Shown here piece after piece: positions 24,110-36,446 of a DNA stretch of 64,000 bases. Source of the stretch: Poseidonia sp. (GTDB lineage Archaea; Thermoplasmatota; Poseidoniia; Poseidoniales; Poseidoniaceae); contig JAKMEE010000039.1 of assembly GCA_022426155.1 (NCBI GenBank), positions 24,516 to 88,515 on the forward strand. The letters are read 5' to 3'. Positions within the stretch are counted from its first letter, which is position 1; each line of letters starts with the position of its first letter. Position numbers and translations under genes: made by a program. The notes below the pieces were generated by a model that was not told where the DNA came from, made no database searches, and saw only the letters and a list, made by a program, of their open reading frames with translations.

Positions 24110-25507
24110 GTGTCGGATGAGGTGGAAGTGATTGAACCTGCGGATTCAACGCCATCAGAAGGTCATGAACTTGATCACTTACAAGCCTCTGACCCGTCTC
24201 TCCGAGCATTGTTGAAGGTCTTGCTGAATATCAAAACCTTGCCTCATATCCTCCTCATCCTTACTCTTTCAACACCCTTGTACCTTCTCGCAAATAATGG
24301 TCAAAACGAGTTGAGTGCCTTCTGCTTCCTCTCACTTTCTCTTGGATACCTGACGACGGGCTTGTTCTCAAACAGTGCACGAGTGAAATCTTGGACTCAA
24401 TTGCCCGATATTCGAGATCCTGAGAACTCAACTTCACTGATTATTCGCGTTTTGAAAAGTTTCAGAATTTGTCTCTTCCCCCTCGGAATTTCACTGGGCT
24501 GGTTTGTGTTTTTACAAGTGCTATTCAATGAAGGTGGTCCAGCCGCTGAATTTTCTTCCCTTGTACCCTTTGTTTTGGGAACACTGTTTTTGTTTTGGGC
24601 CGTTATGCAGGGCCGAAGTTTCGCACGATGGTTAGCATCCGTTGCGGCTTACAAACTTCCGTCATCGCATACACGAGAAGGAGGTTTGGTCGGCAGCATG
24701 GTTGTGTTCTGTACCGTAATCTCCATCATCGCTACTGCTGGATTGGCCGTATTTGTCGCCCTGCACGGTGAACCACTGGGCGTTCTCTCATTGTTCACAG
24801 GTCATTTGGGTTACTTCCTCGGCGTGGGGGCGCTCTTGGCTTTGAGTCTGTGGTCGACGCGTCACGCAAGGGAGTTGGCAGGCAGCAAAGTGATGTTGCA
24901 TCGCTTTTCCAACCGCTGGCTCATGCTTTCTCAAATTATGATAACATGGCACTTTTTGACCGTTTGGCGTCACCGGGAATTAGACCCGAGTACACCTGAA
25001 CTACTCCTTGAAGAAGTGCTTCTCATGATGTCTACTGTGTTCATGGCAATCTGGGGGTTAACGTCCAAATCTTTCCGTTCAAGCCTGCGGTTGGTGCATG
25101 AGGGGAATGCACTCACCGTTGGTCTGTCATTTGGTTATGCTTACGCAGGAAGCGTCGCCATGCTTGCTACTGTATTCGATGATTTTGTCACCGTCATGGT
25201 CACGGGGCACATCGTTGTCATTCTCACGTTCCTTTGGATGCAACGAAAGGTGCTGAATGGGATCATCACAGACCACGATGCGACAGTCAAGGTGAATCGA
25301 ACAGTGGAATCCATTGCTCCTGCACCGGTCGCTGACGATGAAACAAAAGAGCCAGGTCCAGAAGAAGCCTCCGAGACCGAGCAAGAGGGAGTCGTAACCT
25401 CAAGTGTCGAAGTGGGTGCAATCGGCGAGGATGTTGACTGGGAGGGGGCCACCGAAGTTCTTGCAGAGGGTGTGGATTGGGACGATGAAATCGAACTTCT
25501 GGACTAA
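24110..25507 (+). CDS. polytopic membrane protein (465 aa) with acidic C-terminal tail, unknown function
   Basis: ~9 hydrophobic helices; C-terminal 'DDETKEPGPEEASETEQEG…DWDDEIELLD'. Divergent to the Pop5 gene. Confidence 0.55.
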   Translation: MSDEVEVIEPADSTPSEGHELDHLQASDPSLRALLKVLLNIKTLPHILLILTLSTPLYLLANNGQNELSAFCFLSLSLGYLTTGLFSNSARVKSWTQLPDIRDPENSTSLIIRVLKSFRICLFPLGISLGWFVFLQVLFNEGGPAAEFSSLVPFVLGTLFLFWAVMQGRSFARWLASVAAYKLPSSHTREGGLVGSMVVFCTVISIIATAGLAVFVALHGEPLGVLSLFTGHLGYFLGVGALLALSLWSTRHARELAGSKVMLHRFSNRWLMLSQIMITWHFLTVWRHRELDPSTPELLLEEVLLMMSTVFMAIWGLTSKSFRSSLRLVHEGNALTVGLSFGYAYAGSVAMLATVFDDFVTVMVTGHIVVILTFLWMQRKVLNGIITDHDATVKVNRTVESIAPAPVADDETKEPGPEEASETEQEGVVTSSVEVGAIGEDVDWEGATEVLAEGVDWDDEIELLD

Positions 25508-26442
25508 GATGGCTTAATGCCAGAGAGAAGGGTTACAACCCGAATCGTATCCTGGAGGTCCTCACTCACCCTTGCTCCCAAAATGACTTGAGCGTCACTA
25601 TCTAGGGCCGAAGTGAACAATTCTGCCACAGCATCGACCTGGCCGATGGTCATGCCAGGTCCACCTTCAACCTGAATCAGGCATCCCTTGGCACCCCCCA
25701 CGTCCATTTCGGCCAAAGGGGCTTTCAATGCAGATTCTAAAATGCCTCGAGGGTCATCAGGGCGTCCAATACCGACCAGCATTGTAGCCAACCCATCTTG
25801 GTCAACGATGGCCCTTAGGTCCATGAGATCGAGGTTGATGAGTCCCATGCGCATCAGAGTGCGAACGAGTCCATCGACAAGATCTTCTACCCACTCTGCA
25901 CCCATTTGCCAATTCTGACCTTTCTCTCTCGCTTGCCTTGCTAGGCGTTCGAGGGAGAGGCGTACTGTTACATGAGCCGTTTGTTCAAGTCGTGAAAACC
26001 CTTCTTCTGCCAAAGCCAAGCGGGCGGGTTGTGCTTCAAACGGAAGTCCTGCAACGGCGAGGACAATGGCACCTGTTTGGCGTGCTTGGCGGGCGAACTC
26101 TTGTGCGGCGCCGGTTCCAACTCCACCGCCTAGGCCAGTGAGTAGGATGACCAACTCGGTGTCTTTGAGCAATTGTTGGGTCAAATTATTCAGGCCCCGC
26201 ATGCGTTGTTCAGCTAGCGGTGGGAGGGCTGCACATCCTACTTCGTCCAATGCATGACCAAGGCGGAGAACGTGAACCGTTTCACCCGTTTTGAAACTAC
26301 GATCATCGGCATCAATGAGGGCCAAATGCGCTCCCATTCCACAGCGCACATAGGCCTCGTGCGCCCATGCACAACCCAATCCGCCAACTCCGGCGATGAG
26401 GATGTTGGAGGGGTCCATGATTGACGAAGAACGCGGCGTCAC
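25504..26442 (-). CDS. divergent FtsZ/tubulin-superfamily GTPase (short, 312 aa)
   Basis: 'ILIAGVGGLGCAWAHEA' (T1 loop-like), 'LLTGLGGGVGTGAAQEFARQ' (tubulin signature GGGTGTG with T→V) and 'INLDLMDLRAIV' (T7 synergy loop NxDxxD). Confidence 0.6.
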   Translation of the reverse strand: MTPRSSSIMDPSNILIAGVGGLGCAWAHEAYVRCGMGAHLALIDADDRSFKTGETVHVLRLGHALDEVGCAALPPLAEQRMRGLNNLTQQLLKDTELVILLTGLGGGVGTGAAQEFARQARQTGAIVLAVAGLPFEAQPARLALAEEGFSRLEQTAHVTVRLSLERLARQAREKGQNWQMGAEWVEDLVDGLVRTLMRMGLINLDLMDLRAIVDQDGLATMLVGIGRPDDPRGILESALKAPLAEMDVGGAKGCLIQVEGGPGMTIGQVDAVAELFTSALDSDAQVILGARVSEDLQDTIRVVTLLSGIKPS

Positions 26443-26966: not shown

Positions 26967-27797
26967 ATGCTCAAAGGTTCACGAACATCACGCACCACCC
27001 TGCTGGCTTTGGTAGCGTCACTTTTGTTGCTGCCAACGCTCGCTTCATCGTATCACGGAGGCATTGGTGGCAGTCAATCTTACCAAGGTTCGAGTGGTTC
27101 TGTGACCATTGACGATGTTGCGCAATCAGGATGTCTTTGTCACAATGAGGTGGCAGATAATTCAGTTCAAGTAATTCTTGATGATGTCCCCTACGGTTGG
27201 ATTGCAGGAGAGACCTACACCTTCACTCTCCAACTTATCGGAGGCCCTGAAGCCTCCGGCGCCTACACAGCAGGCTTCTCTATGAGGGTCTCGTTGGGAG
27301 TCTTATCTAGCGACGTGGCCCAAAATTGGGAGGACGACCCTCAAACATTGACTCACACCGAGGACTCAGCAAACACCGAAGACCGTTCATGGGTGGTTCA
27401 ATGGACGGCTCCAGGGGCAGGGGAAGGTGCTGTAAACTTCTGGATTACAGGCAATTCTGTGAACGGTGACCAACTTCCAGGAGTTGAAGACCGATGGAAC
27501 CAACTTCTCTTTGGGCTTCAAGAAGGCGATGAAAACACGGATGCCTTCGGAACTCGTACACTATTTGCTGGTGACGGCAACGTGAGCCCACCAGAACCTG
27601 CTCATCATGGAGTGGACCTTCATCACATGGGAGCCAAACTCCGTGCTCACTGGCTTGGATTGCTTGGATTCGGTGCCGTGATTGGAACCATTATTTTCGC
27701 TGGTCTTCTTCTCCGGTATGGATTTTCAACGTCCTACAAGGGTCGAAGCAATCAGCTTCGATTGCGCTACAAACTCATGCGACGAGGTGATCAATGA
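26967..27797 (+). CDS. secreted, C-terminally membrane-anchored protein; first gene of the Rieske/cytochrome b operon (possible extracytoplasmic electron-transfer subunit)
   Basis: Signal peptide 'LLALVASLLLLPTLASS'; C-terminal TM 'LGLLGFGAVIGTIIFAGLLL' then a basic tail; His-rich 'HHGVDLHHM'. No CxxCH or clear cupredoxin motif. Confidence 0.55.
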   Translation: MLKGSRTSRTTLLALVASLLLLPTLASSYHGGIGGSQSYQGSSGSVTIDDVAQSGCLCHNEVADNSVQVILDDVPYGWIAGETYTFTLQLIGGPEASGAYTAGFSMRVSLGVLSSDVAQNWEDDPQTLTHTEDSANTEDRSWVVQWTAPGAGEGAVNFWITGNSVNGDQLPGVEDRWNQLLFGLQEGDENTDAFGTRTLFAGDGNVSPPEPAHHGVDLHHMGAKLRAHWLGLLGFGAVIGTIIFAGLLLRYGFSTSYKGRSNQLRLRYKLMRRGDQ

Positions 27798-28240
27798 TGG
27801 ACGATACCATTACCCAATTATTGCGTGGGGTTGCTGACGGCAGCGTCAAGGTCGAAGATGCCCGTACTGCTCTAGAGGGGGCAGAAATGAGCGAGGAACA
27901 AATGAACTCAGCCATTGACCATGGTGTTTTCAATGTGGCTGAGCCGGGGACCATCGTAAGTGCAAGTCTCGCACCTTCTGGTGCCTCTGGCCTTGCGATG
28001 TTTTTCCTTGCGTGGGGCCTCTTTTGGGTTTGTTATTGGAGTTTCTCGATGATTTACGGCCTTGCAAACAAATGGGACCAACAACAACTATCCTTCCATC
28101 TGGCGATGACCTTTACCACCTTGATCATGCTCGGTATCGTCTATCTCAAATTCATCCTGCCTGACACCATTATTGTCAAGCATGCACAGAATAAGTTCGT
28201 GCCAGAACATCAAAAAGATTGGCGAGAATACAAGTGGTGA
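27794..28240 (+). CDS. small membrane protein (148 aa) of the Rieske/cyt b operon
   Basis: ATGA start/stop overlap with the upstream gene (27794-27797); two TM helices (LAMFFLAWGLFWVCYWSF… / MTFTTLIMLGIVYL). Confidence 0.5.
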   Translation: MMDDTITQLLRGVADGSVKVEDARTALEGAEMSEEQMNSAIDHGVFNVAEPGTIVSASLAPSGASGLAMFFLAWGLFWVCYWSFSMIYGLANKWDQQQLSFHLAMTFTTLIMLGIVYLKFILPDTIIVKHAQNKFVPEHQKDWREYKW

Positions 28241-28245
28241 GGGAC

Positions 28246-29091
28246 ATGGCACGAGAATACGAACTCAAACCCGCTCCTTCCCAGGCATCAGTTGACACAG
28301 GCGATGCCTCAAGCCATCTCAATCGCCGTCAATTCTTGCGTTATGGGTTCAACACAGCAGCAGGTGTCCTCACCGCATCACTAGGGGTGCTTGGCTTTGC
28401 TTCAATCCTGCTTCCACCTGGGGGCTCTAGCGGTGGAGACCTTGCAGTGAAGTTTTGGGCTAAGGGCCGAGAAGATTCTGCTTGGTACGGAGCTCAGCAC
28501 CTTCAACCCATGACCAAAGATTCCTTCGTCAAAGAAGCCGCCTCCTCTTCCACAGGCACCTCTGGTGCTTCAGGTGTTTGGAACGGTGTTCCTGTGGTTG
28601 TGAATTATGTGGCTCACTCCAAGAATGCAGGTACGCCTGAATCCAACGGAAAAGCCAGATTCCAGTTCACTGAAGGCATCGATGAAACCGGAAAATACGT
28701 CGGTCACTTCGATGATCTCGCAGAACAAGATCCACGATTGATGCCAAGCGAAGACCTTGTGATGGTCTTTGGTCGATGCACTCACCTTTGCTGCATTCCA
28801 GGATGGCAACTTGTCTCTAATTCATTCACAGAAGATTCGTGGACGCCCGGTGGCGGAGATGACGGTGGAACCAAAATGTTCTGCATCTGCCATTCGTCCC
28901 GATTTGACCCGACAGTGCTTGAGATGAACACCAACCGAAACCGTTCGAACGGTTCCACGTTCAAGTATGCGGGTATTCGCCGAGCTGGTGGCCCTGCCCC
29001 TGTCGGCCTCCCAATCATCCCCATCTCCCTCAACGGTGATGTAATCGAAGGTTTGCCAGATTATCTTGACTGGTACACATATTGTGACTGA
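28246..29091 (+). CDS. Rieske [2Fe-2S] iron-sulfur protein with twin-arginine signal
   Basis: Tat motif 'NRRQFLRYG'; Rieske box I 'CTHLCC' and box II 'CICHSS'. Start placed at ATG 28246 with GAGGGA 4 nt upstream (the track starts at 28219). Confidence 0.85.
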   Translation: MAREYELKPAPSQASVDTGDASSHLNRRQFLRYGFNTAAGVLTASLGVLGFASILLPPGGSSGGDLAVKFWAKGREDSAWYGAQHLQPMTKDSFVKEAASSSTGTSGASGVWNGVPVVVNYVAHSKNAGTPESNGKARFQFTEGIDETGKYVGHFDDLAEQDPRLMPSEDLVMVFGRCTHLCCIPGWQLVSNSFTEDSWTPGGGDDGGTKMFCICHSSRFDPTVLEMNTNRNRSNGSTFKYAGIRRAGGPAPVGLPIIPISLNGDVIEGLPDYLDWYTYCD

Positions 29092-29100
29092 GGTGAAAAA

Positions 29101-29967
29101 ATGACAACAATGTTTTGGATTCTTTGGTTCTTTATTGCCTTCCTCGTCATTCTGGTGGCATTCACTCTTCGAAAAGAAGATGAAGAAATGCCACGACGTG
29201 ACATCCTTCGAGCGGTTGAATCGACAGGACGCATGGGGGTAGCAGAACGCTCCTTCTTGTGGGTATTTTCATGGCTTGACACTCGTTTCCGTTTGCAAGA
29301 TTACTGGAATATGTCCAAGGGTGCTTACTATAATATGCACCGACAAATGCCGCTTACTCACGCTGAAAAGTACAAACTCCGTATCATTTGGTATTGGTAT
29401 CCTTTGTATTGTCTCGGTGGAATCTCCTTCCTTTCTTTCATCATCTTGGTCGTCACAGGAACCGTGTTAGGAATCTACTATGTTCCTGGTGGTGAGGGTG
29501 ATCCTTCACCTGCTTATGCGAGCATGCAATACATCATGACTGAGTTGCCCTTTGGATACATCCTCCGTGCAGTTCACCACTGGACGACGCACTTTATGGT
29601 GGCCAGTGTTTTCCTTCACATGTGCCGTGTGTACTTCACAGGAGCTTACCGCAACCCACGTGAATTAAACTGGCTCATCGGTGTAGCATTGATGGCTTTA
29701 ACCATCGTGTTCGGATATTCTGGCTATCTCCTTCCGTGGGACAGTTTGGCATACGGTGCAGCAATTATCGGAATCAACCTCGCGAACTCAAGCCCACTGG
29801 TCGGGAAGTATGTGGCTACCCTCTTGTTCTCAGGTTCTGAATTAACGCCGCTCACTGTCACTCGAATGTACTTCATTCACGTGTTCATTCTACCAGTCAT
29901 TGTTACCACCCTGATCATCATTCACTTGTTTATTGTCTGGGTACAAGGCATTGCAGAGCCACATTGA
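29101..29967 (+). CDS. cytochrome b (b6-type, N-terminal four-helix heme domain)
   Basis: 'RAVHHWTTHFMVASVFLHMCRVYFTGAYR' (His pair 13 apart), 'GYSGYLLPW', and a second His pair 14 apart in 'FIHVFILPVIVTTLIIIHLF'; GAGGTGA RBS. Confidence 0.85.
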   Translation: MTTMFWILWFFIAFLVILVAFTLRKEDEEMPRRDILRAVESTGRMGVAERSFLWVFSWLDTRFRLQDYWNMSKGAYYNMHRQMPLTHAEKYKLRIIWYWYPLYCLGGISFLSFIILVVTGTVLGIYYVPGGEGDPSPAYASMQYIMTELPFGYILRAVHHWTTHFMVASVFLHMCRVYFTGAYRNPRELNWLIGVALMALTIVFGYSGYLLPWDSLAYGAAIIGINLANSSPLVGKYVATLLFSGSELTPLTVTRMYFIHVFILPVIVTTLIIIHLFIVWVQGIAEPH

Positions 29968-29982
29968 TACGGAGGAAGAAGC

Positions 29983-32793
29983 ATGGGATTGATCGACAAT
30001 TTTGGCCGCGTTGCCTCCATATACATGGAGGAAAAGAAGCACCTTCAGGAAGCGCAGGAAAAGCGAACGAGAACTCGTACAGGTCACGGGTTCTGGCCGC
30101 ATGAAGTTCTGCGTGACAGCATTCTCTTCGCCTCAATGTTGGCGATTTTGCTGTTTTATGCATGGTTGATTCCACCACCATTGCACGGTGCTGCTGACCC
30201 ATACGCACAAGCAGGCTTCGTGTTCCCTGATTGGTACGTGTTGTTCTCCTATGGATACCTTCGGTGGGGAGAATATTTGCCTCAATTTGTCGTTCCTACA
30301 GGGTTTGTTGGAGAAATAGTTGGGCAACCCATGTTCCCATGGAACGCTGCATGGTGGGGCGCTGCCCTCACCGGTATTCCAGTCGGTATTCTTGCTCTTC
30401 CACCCTTCCTCGGTGGCCGTGAGAAGCGTCCAGTCGAGGACCCATGGTTTGCTGCTGCTGGTGCGGTTTATCTCGCACACATCTGGTTTATCTCGGTCTT
30501 TTCCATCAACATCTTCCTTGAGTTATATGGTAAAAACAGGTCAGATTTCTGTAAACTTGATTCTCACGGAGATCTCTTGTGTGGTGTTCGTGAACCTTGG
30601 ATTGCCGATGTGTTCAATGCGATACCGTGGGTCATGACGGGCGTCTTGATGTGGATTTGTATCTATTTCATTGGCCGCATCTTACTGGTGAAAGCCTGGG
30701 GTACAGGATTTACCGTGGCAAAGAGCCGCCAATTGATTGTAGGGGCTCTTATCATTTCATCTGCTGCCACAGTGGCCACTTTCGATACCTATGATAACGG
30801 GTTTTGGGACGCAAAAGGACTGCTTACAATCAAAGATTACGGCGAACTTGAGGCCATGCGAACTCAACCTACCGATGTCCATGTTCACGAAACCAACGAA
30901 TTCACAGATGACCGTGGATGGTCGGACAGCGGTGTTGTCCCGAGCTCTGCATGGTTGAATTGGAACATCTACCAGCCCGCTCGATACATCCTCATTGATT
31001 TCACCGATTCTAACGGACATCAGGACGCAGCTAACGGCATCAATGCAGCCGAAGGTTCATCCACGTTTAACGGTGGAGAAGGCTGGACAGTTTCGGGTCA
31101 ATTTAGTGTCACAGAGGATCCCATAAACTTCCCTGAAGGCCATCCAGAGGAAGTGATGTCGATTACCACTGATGTTTCATGTGAATACAGGTCCAGCGTC
31201 CGTAAGATCAACGATGTCTCTACTCAAACAATGATCTCAACAACTCTTTCTGTCACGGATGCTAATGGGGCTACCGTGTCCTCATTCAATGATTGCGAGG
31301 GTGATACCGTTGAATTAGAGGTTGGCTCCTATGATTACACTTACACAGTTCTAGCAAGCGGGGCCTTGGCTCTCAATGAAAGTATTGAAACTGAGACATC
31401 TTTCGTTATCAAATCTTTCCAACCTCTCTTGATTTGGGATGAAGATGCACCAGCCGCTCTTGCTGGGCACACCGTTAACCTCTCGGACAACGAGGAGATG
31501 GCTTTGGGTGGCAGTGCGTTCTCAAGCATTGAGAATCCAACATATCACCAAAACCCGAAATCTTTGGATGCCAAGCTAACCTACGCCATGTTCATTCCTT
31601 GTGTGACCTTTGGTGCCCTTGTCTTTGTCCTCTTGCGATACATGGCCCGTGGCTATGAATTTGAGATGAACAAGTGTTACGGTTGTGACCTGTGCGACGA
31701 TGCTTGCCCAGTCCGTCTGTTCAACGGTGGTGACAAACTCAACATCATCTACAACTCATGGAATAACGAGGACGATGGTGTTCCACTTTATTCCTGCCTG
31801 ACTTGCACTGCTTGTACCAATGCATGTCCACAACTCGTCGATTATGACTCCTATGTGGACATTCGCCGAAGCCTCATCGTCGGTGGCCCTCAAGCAGAAA
31901 TCCCTCACACTGTTCTTCAAGCCGTTCTCTCAGCTGAAGCAGAAGAAGCAGCCGATGATGATTTCATTGCCACCAAAGACTACCCCATCACCTCCAACAT
32001 TGGTTACTACCCAGGTTGCGTTGATTACCTGGACCAAGAGATGGTGTTTTCACACGTGAACGAGGGTACCATGAACTTGGGTGATTCCACCACCGCTGCA
32101 TTCACCTTGTTTGAAGAGATGGAAACCGATGTATCCTACCTTGGACGTGATTTCCTCAAGTGCTGTGGTCACGATCAGAAGTGGCAAGGGCTGGATGAGG
32201 TCTTTGAGAAGTTGAAGGCCTACAACCAACGCAAGATTCACGAATCAGGCATTGATACATTGGTGTCTTCCTGCGCTGAATGTTTCCGTACCTTTGCTCG
32301 AGATTATGAATTGGAAGATGTCAAGGTGATGCATACGACTGAATTCCTCATCGAGCAAGGATTTGACATGAACCTCAAGTCAGAAGAAACTACTGTGACC
32401 TATCACGACCCGTGCAGACTTGGTCGTCAAATGGGCGTCTACGATGAACCACGTGAGCTCATCAATGCTGTCGAAGGTGTTGAAATTGTTGAGATGGAAC
32501 ACCACGGTGAAGACGCTATGTGTTGCGGTGTTTCTAGCATGATGTCATGCAATGAAAACGCTCGCTCCCTGCGTGTCACACGCATGGAAGAAGTGCGTGC
32601 TACTGGTGCCGACACCATGTTGACTTCCTGTCCAAAATGTGTTTCACACTTTGAGTGTTTGAAGTTTGAAGGCGATGAAGCCTATGAAGACATTGAGATT
32701 CTCGATGTCGTGTCCTTCCTCGCTCGACAAGTGAATGAAAAGAAAGCTCAAATTGGTGCTGAAGCAACACTCAATGAAAGCGCAGAAGCCTGA
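29983..32793 (+). CDS. fusion: cytochrome b C-terminal/subunit-IV domain + large extracytoplasmic insert + TM + 2x[4Fe-4S] ferredoxin + two CCG (HdrD-like cysteine-rich) domains
   Basis: 'VFPDWYVLFSYGYLRW' matches the cyt b/SUIV 'PEWY' motif. 'CYGCDLCDDACP' and 'CLTCTACTNACP' are ferredoxin motifs. 'LKCCGHD…SSCAECF' and 'MCCGVSS…TSCPKCV' are CCG domains. GGAGG RBS. Confidence 0.8.
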   Translation: MGLIDNFGRVASIYMEEKKHLQEAQEKRTRTRTGHGFWPHEVLRDSILFASMLAILLFYAWLIPPPLHGAADPYAQAGFVFPDWYVLFSYGYLRWGEYLPQFVVPTGFVGEIVGQPMFPWNAAWWGAALTGIPVGILALPPFLGGREKRPVEDPWFAAAGAVYLAHIWFISVFSINIFLELYGKNRSDFCKLDSHGDLLCGVREPWIADVFNAIPWVMTGVLMWICIYFIGRILLVKAWGTGFTVAKSRQLIVGALIISSAATVATFDTYDNGFWDAKGLLTIKDYGELEAMRTQPTDVHVHETNEFTDDRGWSDSGVVPSSAWLNWNIYQPARYILIDFTDSNGHQDAANGINAAEGSSTFNGGEGWTVSGQFSVTEDPINFPEGHPEEVMSITTDVSCEYRSSVRKINDVSTQTMISTTLSVTDANGATVSSFNDCEGDTVELEVGSYDYTYTVLASGALALNESIETETSFVIKSFQPLLIWDEDAPAALAGHTVNLSDNEEMALGGSAFSSIENPTYHQNPKSLDAKLTYAMFIPCVTFGALVFVLLRYMARGYEFEMNKCYGCDLCDDACPVRLFNGGDKLNIIYNSWNNEDDGVPLYSCLTCTACTNACPQLVDYDSYVDIRRSLIVGGPQAEIPHTVLQAVLSAEAEEAADDDFIATKDYPITSNIGYYPGCVDYLDQEMVFSHVNEGTMNLGDSTTAAFTLFEEMETDVSYLGRDFLKCCGHDQKWQGLDEVFEKLKAYNQRKIHESGIDTLVSSCAECFRTFARDYELEDVKVMHTTEFLIEQGFDMNLKSEETTVTYHDPCRLGRQMGVYDEPRELINAVEGVEIVEMEHHGEDAMCCGVSSMMSCNENARSLRVTRMEEVRATGADTMLTSCPKCVSHFECLKFEGDEAYEDIEILDVVSFLARQVNEKKAQIGAEATLNESAEA

Positions 32794-32871: not shown

Positions 32872-33159
32872 TTAGGAAGAGCCTTCTTCATCCTCGTCAT
32901 TCATGCCGACGATCTCGTAGTTGGAAGGGAATAGGGCGATGATGACACCTAGCATCAATGAGAGTAGCCCCCATCCGAAACGCTGGTCAACAAATAGAAG
33001 TTCCAGTGCCAAGACAACCAAGAGCAATCCGCCGATGTTGGAAGTCCAGACGAGGGTCTTGAAAGTAGCAAGGCTCACACCCGTTGTGCCGGGTTTTCTG
33101 TAGGGTCCAAATTCTCCTCCAAAGCGTTGTGCTGTTGGGTCCTTTCCTGATTTTGACAT
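32872..33159 (-). CDS. small membrane protein (95 aa)
   Basis: ORF with two hydrophobic helices; follows the ferredoxin gene on the same strand. Confidence 0.4.
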   Translation of the reverse strand: MSKSGKDPTAQRFGGEFGPYRKPGTTGVSLATFKTLVWTSNIGGLLLVVLALELLFVDQRFGWGLLSLMLGVIIALFPSNYEIVGMNDEDEEGSS

Positions 33160-33170
33160 ACGTGTTCACC

Positions 33171-33503
33171 TCATCGGTCGATCATTGTGATCGCATCTGT
33201 TGGACATGCCAGTACGCAGAGACGACATCCAGTACAGGCATCGCGAATGATCTTGGCCTTTCGATTGCTTTCAACTTTCATCAAAGGGCTAAGAACATCC
33301 ACATGGTAGAGTTCGATAGCGTCATCATCGCAGACGATGGTGCATTGGTCACAGCCAATGCATTTTCGCTCCTCAACGAAGGCCACGGTACCTTCACCAC
33401 CCTTGGTGTTGGCCCGTTGCTCACCTCGTTGTCGATTCAGGGAGGCTCTGATACGCAGGGCCTCTTCCTCCCTTCGTCGCCGTAGCTCATCCGCACCGGT
33501 CAT
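33171..33503 (-). CDS. 2x[4Fe-4S] ferredoxin
   Basis: 'CIGCDQCTIVCDD' and 'CTGCRLCVLACP'. The ATG at 33503 overlaps the upstream stop (ATGA); the track ORF extends further (33626) into the upstream gene. Confidence 0.7.
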   Translation of the reverse strand: MTGADELRRRREEEALRIRASLNRQRGEQRANTKGGEGTVAFVEERKCIGCDQCTIVCDDDAIELYHVDVLSPLMKVESNRKAKIIRDACTGCRLCVLACPTDAITMIDR

Positions 33504-34174
33504 GCTACAACCTCGTTCGCAGGTTCCCCTTGAAACTTGGCAACGCTCAGGTTCACCAAAACATCGCCTAGACAGTAGAATGCTCCAACCAATAACGGAG
33601 GGTTCCAGGCAGTCAAGCCAGTCCATGGAACTTCAGCAGCCCAAGTCCAATTGAGCAGGTAGGTGCCCCAAAGTTCCATCGCCAACGCCGCCCATGCCAT
33701 CGATGCATAGAGTCGTGGTTCGGGACCCCATTTTGTGAAGCCAAGCACCATGATTAACAAGAACACCCCAGAGGTATCTCCGCCAGTCCATAGTCCGTAA
33801 AGGACCAGTGGTACGAAAGGCAACAACATGGGAAAAGCCCATGAGACTTTGAGACGTTTTGCCATCCTCCTCCCGAGATCAAATAAGAAATAGTGGCCTG
33901 CGGGAACGAAAAGTGGCATCAAATGCCGTTGGTATTCGTAAATTAACCAAATCTCGGAAAAGAATAATTCCATTGGTGTGGCGATGGCCACTACCGTGAT
34001 CATTTCAATTCGCTCTTTTCGGTCGGTATTACGATAGATGAAGAAGAACAATCCCCAACACCAGATGTTCACCGGCCATTCGGCTACGCCATCATCAACC
34101 AGGCCTCCAAACGCTGTGGCTGATGCCCAAAGGCCAATCCCGATGGTCATGATGTACCAAAGGGGGCGGTTCAT
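33500..34174 (-). CDS. polytopic membrane protein (224 aa), unknown function
   Basis: ≥6 hydrophobic helices, Trp-rich; translationally coupled to the ferredoxin. Confidence 0.5.
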   Translation of the reverse strand: MNRPLWYIMTIGIGLWASATAFGGLVDDGVAEWPVNIWCWGLFFFIYRNTDRKERIEMITVVAIATPMELFFSEIWLIYEYQRHLMPLFVPAGHYFLFDLGRRMAKRLKVSWAFPMLLPFVPLVLYGLWTGGDTSGVFLLIMVLGFTKWGPEPRLYASMAWAALAMELWGTYLLNWTWAAEVPWTGLTAWNPPLLVGAFYCLGDVLVNLSVAKFQGEPANEVVA

Positions 34175-35243: not shown

Positions 35244-36446
35244 TCACCGCCGATTGAGAGATTCAGCTCCCATTGCAAGCATGCTAAGTTCCGCTAAGAG
35301 TGCATGCCATCCGTGAGCATGTTCTCCAAAACGAATCTTTTTTTCTCCAAGTGGCTCAAACCTTGCACTAGGTGAGTTGAGATTGTCCATGTCCGAACGT
35401 TTTGGATTGATTCGATAAAACCACGATGCAGCCTCTCCGTCAATCAGATAGACCACAGGCTCAACAGGTTCTTCATCTTCAGTAACCATGATGGTCGGTA
35501 TTCCTTCCTGTATGAGGAAATTTTCAACATCAACCCCACCTTTTGCGTAGCTTAATTTGTTGGCTTTCCGATTTGATAGATTGATGATTTCATTACCAGA
35601 ATGTAGCACTATGATGCCCAACCCGTAAGTCCCTGAGTCATTTTTCATCACAACTGCTGGCTTTCTTTCTATGCCTAGAGCCGTGTACTTTTGCTGAATA
35701 CGGTCAAGAAACGCATCAATCTCCAATGCGAGTTTTTGGCGGCAGGCATCTTCAATCAGGCATTTATTCTCAGAAACAAACCACTCGGGCATCAAGTGCC
35801 AAGGGTCAATCTCCAACATCTCTGCTACCTCGTTCACATAGGGCTGAAGTGCTTCGTAGTGCTCAGATTTCCTTCGGTGATGCCACCCCATTTCTGGAGG
35901 CGGTGATACATTGGGTGATTTTAATCCAGGCAGGGTGCCGCCCGTGAGGTCGTTGTTCAGCAAGATAAAATCTGGCTTTTTCCCCTCCACCAAAATTTCA
36001 TTATTCTCTGATAATTGAACTTCATTCAGTTTGAGCGGACCTGATATGCCCTTCAATGACCCGAACTCTTCCAACTCAGGAGAGCCTACTGTGCAGCGAT
36101 ATCCTGCATCTCGTATCAGTGATTGAATGGTGGAGATGTTTTCAACATACCCTTGATTCCGAGTATGCTCTTCCGGGTAGAGGTGGACCCATTCGCATCT
36201 TGGATGCCTTCGCTCAATGTGCTCTCTGAGAAGTTTGGACAATGTGGAACGGTCTTCTTCAGCAGTGTTGTTGAATCCCGCTGGGAAGTGATTTGCATCG
36301 ACAACACCGACTTTCCAACCGGCATCACGTATGTCGACACTTCCATAGATTGGGATGGGGACTTCGGCGCGTTTATTCTGCATCCAGGAAGTGATTTCTT
36401 CTCGATGAGATTCAAGTTTTGAAGATAATTCATGAACATACGTCAA
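35244..36446 (-). CDS. ATP-grasp-like amide ligase (glutamate-cysteine-ligase/glutathionylspermidine-synthetase-like), tentative
   Basis: 'KPAVVMKNDSGTYGLGIIVL' resembles the ATP-grasp nucleotide-binding strand (cf. 'VVKPxxGSxGxGI'); start overlaps the AsnB-like stop by 4 nt. Confidence 0.4.
   Translation of the reverse strand: MTYVHELSSKLESHREEITSWMQNKRAEVPIPIYGSVDIRDAGWKVGVVDANHFPAGFNNTAEEDRSTLSKLLREHIERRHPRCEWVHLYPEEHTRNQGYVENISTIQSLIRDAGYRCTVGSPELEEFGSLKGISGPLKLNEVQLSENNEILVEGKKPDFILLNNDLTGGTLPGLKSPNVSPPPEMGWHHRRKSEHYEALQPYVNEVAEMLEIDPWHLMPEWFVSENKCLIEDACRQKLALEIDAFLDRIQQKYTALGIERKPAVVMKNDSGTYGLGIIVLHSGNEIINLSNRKANKLSYAKGGVDVENFLIQEGIPTIMVTEDEEPVEPVVYLIDGEAASWFYRINPKRSDMDNLNSPSARFEPLGEKKIRFGEHAHGWHALLAELSMLAMGAESLNRR

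Follow-up and report, generated by a model that had tools for sequence, protein, structure and literature searches.

Marine Group II archaea (MGII) are among the most abundant archaea of the surface ocean and remain uncultured. They possess cytochrome b and a Rieske protein but no canonical bc1 complex, and their RnfB is an orphan, with no other rnf genes (Tully 2019). In the Angelarchaeales, hdrD-like and rnfB-like genes adjoin complex III, as Diamond et al. noted in a single sentence, and they suggested that reduced ferredoxin may feed electrons in at complex III (Diamond et al. 2022, PMC9038741). A structurally characterized counterpart is EtfD, whose pair of CCG domains binds one linear [3Fe-4S] and one noncubane [4Fe-4S] cluster. 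Two cubanes wire these to a b heme and menaquinone, and the linear form results from a CTG in place of CCG. Dibrova 2017 mentions neither CCG domains nor heterodisulfide reductase. Here, we examined a 64-kb window (the whole stretch of DNA analyzed) from an MGII archaeon (MGIIa, Candidatus Poseidonia), in which a five-gene Rieske/cytochrome b6 operon (26967–32793, + strand) ends in a single open reading frame (ORF) that joins cytochrome b subunit IV to a ferredoxin domain and two HdrD-like CCG domains. A literature search for prior descriptions of this MGII fusion returned only Tully 2019 and the one sentence of Diamond et al. As far as we found, the fusion, its outer domain, its Thermoplasmatota-wide spread, and the family of the first operon gene are undescribed, and the association itself is barely known. 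We tentatively favor reading the locus as the MGII version of a Thermoplasmatota b6-type Rieske/cytochrome b complex with a built-in cytoplasmic Fe-S wire, in which ferredoxin would deliver electrons through an RnfB-like protein and the HdrD-like wire to heme bH/ci and the quinone at Qi.

The final gene, ORF5 (29983–32793, +), encodes 936 residues that comprise subunit IV, an insert, a 2×[4Fe-4S] domain, and two CCG domains. A GYEFEMN linker and an HdrC-like ferredoxin domain occupy residues 560–620 (31660–31842, +), with cluster ligands at C565/568/571/575 and C605/608/611/615. Pfam Fer4_8, Fer4_9, and Fer4_10 matched residues 561–617, and the ferredoxin cysteines align with Cys412/415/418/422 of EtfD. 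Two CCG domains of the HdrB/HdrD type follow at residues 675–892 (32005–32658, +; PF02754 twice, 1.4e-22), with the motifs C679...C727C728...C764xxC767 and C811...C847C848...C883xxC886. The 47-residue spacing within the first motif is longer than what we take to be canonical. Domain searches thus recovered both the two [4Fe-4S] motifs and the two CCG domains that an initial annotation had read from the sequence.

Conservation of the module is high within MGII and uneven beyond it. Among 24 aligned MGII sequences, the transmembrane (TM) core and all 18 cysteines, 8 in the ferredoxin domain and 10 in the CCG domains, are invariant. In a comparison of 55 orthologous modules, conservation of the second CCG domain was 100%; at the position of C728 in the first, 20 modules have Cys, 29 Ser, 5 Val, and 1 Thr (non-Cys in 35 of 55), and at that of C767, 16 have Gly. 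Because the first CCG site is so plastic, disulfide cleavage is less likely than an electron-transfer wire as the function of the family. The closest solved relative is EtfD of M. smegmatis (Protein Data Bank 9ojn), which phmmer aligned with residues 601–930 (1.7e-23) and which ranked first in a Foldseek search with the C-terminal module (7.4e-11), followed by LutA and HdrB. NCBIfam equivalog matches (TfrB, LdhH, GlpC, DsrK, GlcF, HdrB) all fell far under their cut-offs. The best was TfrB, at 112.7 bits against a cut-off of 385, and the sole Hdr model to match, TIGR03288 for HdrB, scored 20.3 bits against 345.

The membrane part begins with residues 1–236 (29983–30690, +), which correspond to the subunit IV/cytochrome b C-terminal core with helices E–H and carry a PEWY-type Qo motif, PDWY, at residues 82–85 (nucleotides 30226–30237). 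Pfam returned nothing for the isolated N-terminal 274 residues, even at E ≤ 10. A profile built from MGII N-termini matched only b6f subunit IV in the Protein Data Bank, at a marginal E value of 0.03, but collinearly and with PDWY aligned on PEWY. Searching the full library with residues 1–270 yielded distant relatives at 30–41% identity, several of which pass the PF00032 gathering score (e.g., P0167 at 48.7 bits), and a profile of diverse relatives matched both the C-terminal halves of bacterial cytochrome b and b6f subunit IV at 1e-10 to 1e-8. Since the MGII profile, the family-wide profile, and the homologs passing PF00032 agree, we assign the N-terminus to subunit IV, an identity first suggested by the PDWY motif and now supported by profiles even though Pfam misses it. 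Cys190 and Cys200 are invariant in the predicted outer G–H loop of subunit IV (residues 183–200; 30529–30582, +) and may pair as a disulfide.

Hydropathy indicates six TM helices in ORF5, namely E, F, G, H, TM5, and TM6. The last two lie within residues 250–553 (30730–31641, +), where TM5 (250–269) and TM6 (530–553) flank an insert at residues 270–529 (30790–31569, +). The initial annotation had described an insert followed by one further helix; the insert stands, at 260 residues and outside the cell in our prediction, and the helix count rises to two. The insert is acidic and predicted to form an extracytoplasmic β-sandwich. Its sequence varies within MGII, yet a Cys400/Cys438 pair is conserved. 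It was seen only in MGII proteins, from both MGIIa and MGIIb, and shorter homologs lack it. Pfam assigned the isolated insert to no family, even at E ≤ 10. An AlphaFold 2 model of the full 936 residues, computed from the 24-sequence MGII alignment, was usable only for the insert and parts of the CCG region; it gave β strands with predicted local distance difference test (pLDDT) values mostly of 80–92 for residues 340–520, and Foldseek matched the insert to generic β-sandwich, jelly-roll, or GOLD-like folds.

Several features bear on which side of the membrane the Fe-S clusters occupy. The density of Lys plus Arg is high at the ORF5 N-terminus, in the F–G and H–TM5 loops, and in the linker after TM6, and very low in the PDWY loop and the insert. 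Because this pattern fits the positive-inside rule, we place both termini inside, the insert outside, and the Fe-S/CCG domains in the cytoplasm. In short homologs, a GYEYxLN linker and the ferredoxin domain come straight after helix H, the helix that ends on the cytoplasmic side in cytochrome b; in longer homologs, helix H and the ferredoxin domain appear, from reading the sequences, to be separated by further hydrophobic segments. For a C-terminal Fe-S domain to be exported, a conserved twin-arginine motif must immediately precede the final TM helix (PMC5449189). No such motif precedes TM6 of ORF5, where the sequence reads NPKSLDAKL, and export of the Fe-S domain by twin-arginine translocation (Tat) was rejected on that ground. 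The Fe-S/CCG part is predicted to be cytoplasmic, as the initial annotation had supposed, and nothing in these features pointed to an outside location.

The fusion recurs widely. ORF5 homologs with the same architecture at full length occur in more than 100 protein clusters of Poseidoniales at 61–89% identity, the nearest in Poseidoniaceae and Thalassarchaeaceae. Full-length fusions also lie on contigs of 0.4–3 Mb, and the junction region is conserved. Outside MGII, a genome scan with the family motif, using a pattern that excluded MGII, returned 80 loci from Marine Group III (MGIII), many metagenome-assembled genomes (MAGs) of Thermoplasmata/Thermoplasmatota, Halobacteria, and Hydrothermarchaeota. 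We called their architectures by BLAST of the window proteins against the ORFs of each locus together with motif counts. Subunit IV fused to Fer4, with a separate CCG gene directly downstream and a 4-nucleotide overlap, accounts for 47 of the 80, and this is the arrangement of all scored MGIII; Pfam confirmed the MGIII split as a 351-residue subunit IV–Fer4 protein and a 295-residue protein with two CCG domains. Six loci carry the full subunit IV–Fer4–CCG fusion, five (Halobacteria included) have subunit IV–Fer4 only, 21 have subunit IV alone or are cut by a contig end, and one contig-cut locus pairs subunit IV with a separate FeS/CCG gene. Further fused forms of 543–789 residues are present in the representative library. 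The conserved gene set consists of a p-side (outer-face) protein, DUF7318, the Rieske protein, b6, subunit IV–Fer4(–CCG), a CCG protein where separate, and an rnfB-like protein. By gene content, a complex III with an Fe-S/CCG module is a Thermoplasmatota-wide feature, often encoded as separate genes.

One Thermoplasmatota clade has a subunit IV that lacks the Fe-S extension. There, the next gene encodes a protein of about 150 residues whose N-terminal part spans the membrane twice and whose glutaredoxin-like CxxC domain (DUF836) is predicted to be cytoplasmic. This gene follows subunit IV at 14 loci (e.g., L051:8682-9140, L055:1501-1956, L069:4718-5209, and L082:8738-9175).

A soluble, rnfB-like 2×[4Fe-4S] ferredoxin is encoded just beyond the operon (33171–33503, −; 110 residues) and is likely, from its recurrence, the sixth component of the system. 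It matches Pfam Fer4_21 at 1.6e-13. Clustering of the neighborhoods of 82 loci placed an rnfB-like gene after the module in 47 of them, and detected no genes for electron-transfer flavoprotein (ETF), dehydrogenases, DsrC, LbpA, or thiol-cofactor synthesis. Four MGII loci served for comparison. The rnfB-like gene lies on the same strand, 4 nucleotides past the fusion stop, in the Poseidoniaceae locus L084; about 350 nucleotides downstream of the fusion in the two MGIIb loci, L001 and L002; and 2.9 kb downstream in L083. The rnfB-like gene and an adjoining small gene are inverted as a block in the window (32872–33503, −) relative to L084:8768-9456 (+). Some MGIII rnfB-like subunits bear an N-terminal CysJ/flavodoxin-type FMN domain (L010:5287-6276, L014:6507-7499, L028:9885-10874), and in other MGIII the subunit is a four-cluster polyferredoxin (L016:9799-10641).

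The remaining operon genes supply the rest of a quinol-oxidizing core. All five ORFs lie on the + strand and are tightly coupled, encoding 276, 148, 290/281, 288, and 936 residues, with a 4-nucleotide overlap between ORF1 and ORF2 and gaps of 5, 9, and 15 nucleotides thereafter. A GGTGA/GGAGG-like motif precedes each of the ATG starts. The five coupled genes of the initial annotation were therefore recovered as described, as were its Tat-exported Rieske protein and the paired His ligands of its cytochrome b6. The Rieske protein, ORF3, is a divergent [2Fe-2S] protein of 281 residues (28246–29091, +), or 290 if translated from a TTG at 28219; the ATG at 28246 is the likelier start because the GGTGA/GGAGG-like motif precedes it. 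It carries a twin-arginine RRQFL at residue 36 and a TM helix, consistent with a Tat signal and anchor, and its boxes CTHLCC and CICHSSRF, some 30 residues apart, align with CTHLGC and CPCHGSRF of a bc1 Rieske protein. Pfam gave no match even at E ≤ 10, TIGR01416 matched below its cut-off (2.5e-10; 40.6 against 97.4 bits), and nearly all of the weak Protein Data Bank matches were Rieske subunits. Under the Ser/Phe rule quoted in Baymann et al. (PMC3509893), we infer that its redox potential would be intermediate.

ORF4 (29101–29967, +; 288 residues) is a b6-type cytochrome b by its match to PF00033 (7e-41) and by its top Protein Data Bank matches, which are b6 proteins of b6f (1.7e-43). Its predicted heme ligands His159, His173, His260, and His275 align with b6 His86, His100, His187, and His202, with the b6-type spacing of 14 residues in helix D. 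An N-terminal extension of about 100 residues adds a TM helix. In b6, Cys35 is the covalent ligand of heme cn/ci. ORF4 Cys104 (LYCLGGIS; codon at approximately 29410–29412) aligns with this residue (FYCLGGIT), making it a candidate site for a covalent heme cn/ci on the strength of the alignment. At the equivalent position, 34 related loci encode Cys, 30 encode Ser (mostly epipelagic MGIII), and 2 encode Ala. A strict link between the heme ci cysteine and the Fe-S module was considered and rejected, as MGIII have the module yet mostly Ser.

No CxxCH motif occurs in the five operon proteins or in any window ORF of at least 80 residues, so the lack of a heme c site noted in the initial annotation extends beyond the operon; judged by this motif, no c-type cytochrome is encoded in the operon or elsewhere in the window. 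A plausible stand-in is ORF1 (26967–27797, +), a 276-residue secreted, anchored protein of the Reeler-like or "choice-of-anchor V" type, the NCBIfam model of which it matched above cut-off (2e-24). ORF1 shares 100% identity with an annotated protein of a Candidatus Poseidonia sp. MAG. It has a signal-like N-terminal helix, an ectodomain that forms a β-sandwich with weak likeness to Reeler, a C-terminal TM helix, and a conserved basic C-terminal tail; the anchor and tail are also conserved among homologs. Nearly invariant in the family are G-C56-x-C58-H59, His130, Trp142, Pro149, and Asp175-x-Trp177. To our knowledge, CxCH is not among the established heme c motifs. ORF1 homologs form the first operon gene in MGII, MGIII, and Hydrothermarchaeota (e.g., L016:5207-5902 and L043:3153-3941). 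In Angelarchaeales-type loci, this position is held by a protein of about 210 residues that contains the type-1 copper motif CxxHxxxxM and matches plastocyanin near threshold, again followed by DUF7318. Because it shares the operon position of that plastocyanin-like protein, ORF1 is the best candidate for the acceptor of Rieske electrons, and it may substitute functionally for cytochrome c1/f or a blue copper protein on the p-side. ORF2 (27794–28240, +; 148 residues) is a membrane protein with two TM helices and matched PF24002 (DUF7318) weakly (1.1e-3); its ortholog in an Angelarchaeales-type locus (L062:5979-6272) passes the Pfam gathering score at 40.1 bits, and homologs are present at 59 of the 82 loci.

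GC content is even across the window, at 45–52%, and a single tRNA is the only Rfam hit. A gene for glutamate-cysteine ligase lies at 35244–36446 (−), with TIGR02049 just above its cut-off, and recurs a few kilobases past the fusion in L084:9962-11197 and L083:13744-14817, giving three MGIIa-type genomes. Its presence suggests a γ-glutamylcysteine-type thiol in MGIIa archaea. Linkage of the ligase gene to the HdrD-like module may be mere gene order, as it is absent from the MGIIb loci. Upstream, a divergent gene of the FtsZ/tubulin family (25504–26442, −; TIGR00065 at 8.8e-41, below cut-off) keeps its position relative to the operon in L001, L002, L083, and L084, covering both MGIIa and MGIIb. 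Predicted multi-pass membrane proteins are encoded on either side of the locus at 33500–34174 (−; 224 residues) and 24110–25507 (+; 465 residues), neither of which matched NCBIfam.

How electrons would move through such a complex can be proposed from its parts. Quinol would be oxidized at Qo, with the first electron passing from the Rieske protein to ORF1 and/or a cupredoxin and on to a heme-copper oxidase, and the second passing from heme bL to bH, possibly ci, and the Qi site. The Fe-S wire would connect this n-side heme/quinone site with the cytoplasm. The RnfB-like protein would accept electrons from ferredoxin that 2-oxoacid:ferredoxin oxidoreductases have reduced (in some MGIII, from flavodoxin) and pass them by way of the CCG domains and then the [4Fe-4S] clusters to bH/ci and quinone. 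In this role the complex would double as a ferredoxin:quinone reductase, with an architecture like that of EtfD or HdrDE run toward quinone. A ferredoxin-plastoquinone reductase role has long been proposed for b6f and offers a functional parallel. In archaea that degrade peptides, 2-oxoacid:ferredoxin oxidoreductases should yield plenty of reduced ferredoxin. We favor ferredoxin input because the conserved partner is of the ferredoxin type, the catalytic CCG site varies among family members, and ample reduced ferredoxin is expected. The EtfD wire, which runs from CCG through 2×[4Fe-4S] and heme b to menaquinone and is the nearest structure, argues in the same direction, as do the conserved Cys35 equivalent of b6, the orphan RnfB and non-canonical complex III of Tully 2019, and the independent proposal of Diamond et al. 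2022. The conserved fused module and its ferredoxin partner likewise support the unusual electron route that the initial annotation had envisaged.

Some observations weigh against ferredoxin input. Both the donor and the direction in which electrons flow are inferred here, and direction is not readable from sequence. Complex I is also present in these archaea and could already oxidize ferredoxin (Tully 2019; Diamond et al. 2022, PMC9038741). The 110-residue protein matched TIGR01944 below cut-off (3.1e-13; 49.7 against 68.7 bits), which makes it rnfB-like only, and in this window its gene sits on the opposite strand. MGII keep the full HdrB-like set of 5 + 5 cysteines, with which catalytic disulfide chemistry is conceivable. 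To judge from the residue at the Cys104 position, heme ci is not required for the Fe-S module, as most MGIII b6 proteins have Ser there. Lastly, the AlphaFold 2 model of the fusion is poor overall (pLDDT 58.6; predicted template modeling score 0.35) and gives no distance between the Fe-S clusters and heme bH.

The wire could also run outward. The low-potential electron from Qo, after passing from bL to bH, would in that case exit through the Fe-S/CCG domains to a disulfide, as in HdrD, or to ferredoxin, driven by the exergonic high-potential branch to oxygen. Retention of both complete CCG motifs in MGII, as in HdrB and HdrD, speaks for such an output, as do the membrane-anchored glutaredoxin-like CxxC protein that the sister clade without the Fe-S module encodes after subunit IV and the glutamate-cysteine ligase gene near the operon in MGIIa genomes. 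For anammox bacteria, NAD(P)H generation by Rieske/cytochrome b complexes has been proposed along similar lines (PMC12954380). We nevertheless regard an output as unlikely. The first CCG motif is unconserved in most orthologous complexes, no thiol-cofactor or DsrC/LbpA-type genes appeared in about 85 neighborhoods, and the ligase linkage, absent in MGIIb, is possibly plain conserved gene order. MGII are described as aerobic heterotrophs (Tully 2019), and we see no obvious need in them for a quinol-driven reductant. The quinol:disulfide chemistry raised by the initial annotation thus gained no specific support: the second Cys in the first CCG motif is replaced in 35 of 55 orthologs, as in the non-catalytic EtfD cluster, and the partner is an rnfB-like ferredoxin rather than a thiol-handling protein. 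Bifurcation-like coupling, its other suggestion, survives as a conceivable mode that we do not favor.

Comparably doubtful is the idea that the HdrD-like module takes its electrons not from ferredoxin but from ETF, as EtfD does, or from a flavoprotein dehydrogenase, as with GlpC, GlcF, LutA, and SdhE. EtfD is the best solved match, the domains also match TfrB, LdhH, GlpC, and GlcF, and MGII are reported to degrade fatty acids and proteins (Tully 2019). The NCBIfam matches, however, are all far under their cut-offs, and the surveyed neighborhoods contain no etfAB, glcD, glpA, or lutB-type genes; the conserved neighbor is the rnfB-like ferredoxin. A bolder elaboration, which we likewise hold to be a long shot, is that bH and heme ci (Cys104) are hard-wired to the ferredoxin pool through the HdrD-type noncubane/cubane chain, making the complex a quinone-based bifurcating or confurcating machine with ORF1 as a new redox subunit in place of cytochrome f/c1. 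When bifurcating, it would make reduced ferredoxin or thiol at the expense of quinol oxidation by oxygen; when confurcating, electrons from ferredoxin and bL would merge at Qi.

It is quite improbable that the complex is an otherwise ordinary quinol oxidase whose Fe-S/CCG domain serves a structural or regulatory role or is a vestige. Some related lineages do manage with subunit IV alone or with subunit IV–Fer4 only, but no ligating cysteine varies within MGII, the second CCG domain is fully conserved in the 55 orthologs, and the module is kept whether fused or split. That the 936-residue ORF is a frameshift or assembly artifact joining two genes, as the separate CCG gene of MGIII might hint, can be dismissed almost entirely given the conserved junction and the same full-length architecture in more than 100 independent clusters from many assemblies, which confirms the real fusion that the initial annotation had assumed.

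If the Fe-S wire is integral to the complex, the entry of ferredoxin, ETF, or thiol electrons into MGII and Thermoplasmatota respiration would need to be redrawn, and a new coupling of the Rieske/cytochrome b core to cytoplasmic redox carriers would come into view. The fusion would then also provide a genetically defined model for b6f–ferredoxin exchange at heme ci/Qi, a long-standing question. Should the hard-wired bH/ci version hold, nature would provide, in fused form, the ferredoxin:quinone reductase activity long debated for cyclic electron flow in b6f. Two uncharacterized candidate subunits, the Reeler-like GCxCH protein and DUF7318, would be flagged as well.

The MGII complex can be set against several known systems. 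In common with b6f/b6c-type complexes, its Rieske protein bears a Tat signal, its cytochrome b6 has four helices, His residues at b6-type spacing, and a Cys35 equivalent, and its PEWY-type subunit IV is a separate protein. The MGII complex differs in lacking cytochrome f/c1, in the extra N-terminal helix of b6, and in a subunit IV that adds helix H, two more helices, the 260-residue outer domain, and the cytoplasmic HdrD-like module. The haloarchaeal halocyanin–Rieske cluster (PMC3509893) similarly lacks cytochrome c and has a split cytochrome b whose second subunit carries an eighth helix. Homologs in Halobacteria MAGs have a PDWY subunit IV with a fused 2×[4Fe-4S] domain, an extension of which a keyword search of Baymann et al. 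2012 (PMC3509893), covering ferredoxin and 4Fe-4S as well as fused, turned up no mention. Unlike the MGII complex, the haloarchaeal forms lack CCG domains, use halocyanin, and have no ci cysteine according to Baymann et al. 2012 (PMC3509893). Anammox complexes resemble it in having Rieske/cytochrome b cores proposed to exchange electrons with cytoplasmic NAD(P)H, but their extra subunits are a flavoprotein and multiheme c rather than HdrD-like proteins, and their hosts are bacterial anaerobes (PMC12954380).

EtfD (9ojn) and methanogen HdrDE likewise couple a membrane heme b protein to cytoplasmic 2×[4Fe-4S] and 2×CCG domains, forming a wire to or from a quinone-type carrier. Their membrane part, however, is a NarI-type protein with five TM helices and one or two hemes, not a Rieske/b6/subunit IV assembly. 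EtfD has CTG and His583 at its linear [3Fe-4S] cluster, where MGII have CCG (C727-C728-G) and Glu766. In contrast to HdrDE, we see in these aerobic heterotrophs no sequence pointer to CoM-S-S-CoB metabolism, at which no search was aimed. The closest counterpart is the Angelarchaeales locus (PMC9038741), which has the same gene families in the same order from the p-side protein to the rnfB-like gene. There, CCG is a separate gene and the first gene is a plastocyanin-like cupredoxin, whereas in MGII subunit IV through CCG forms one polypeptide with an outer domain and the first gene encodes the Reeler-like GCxCH protein.

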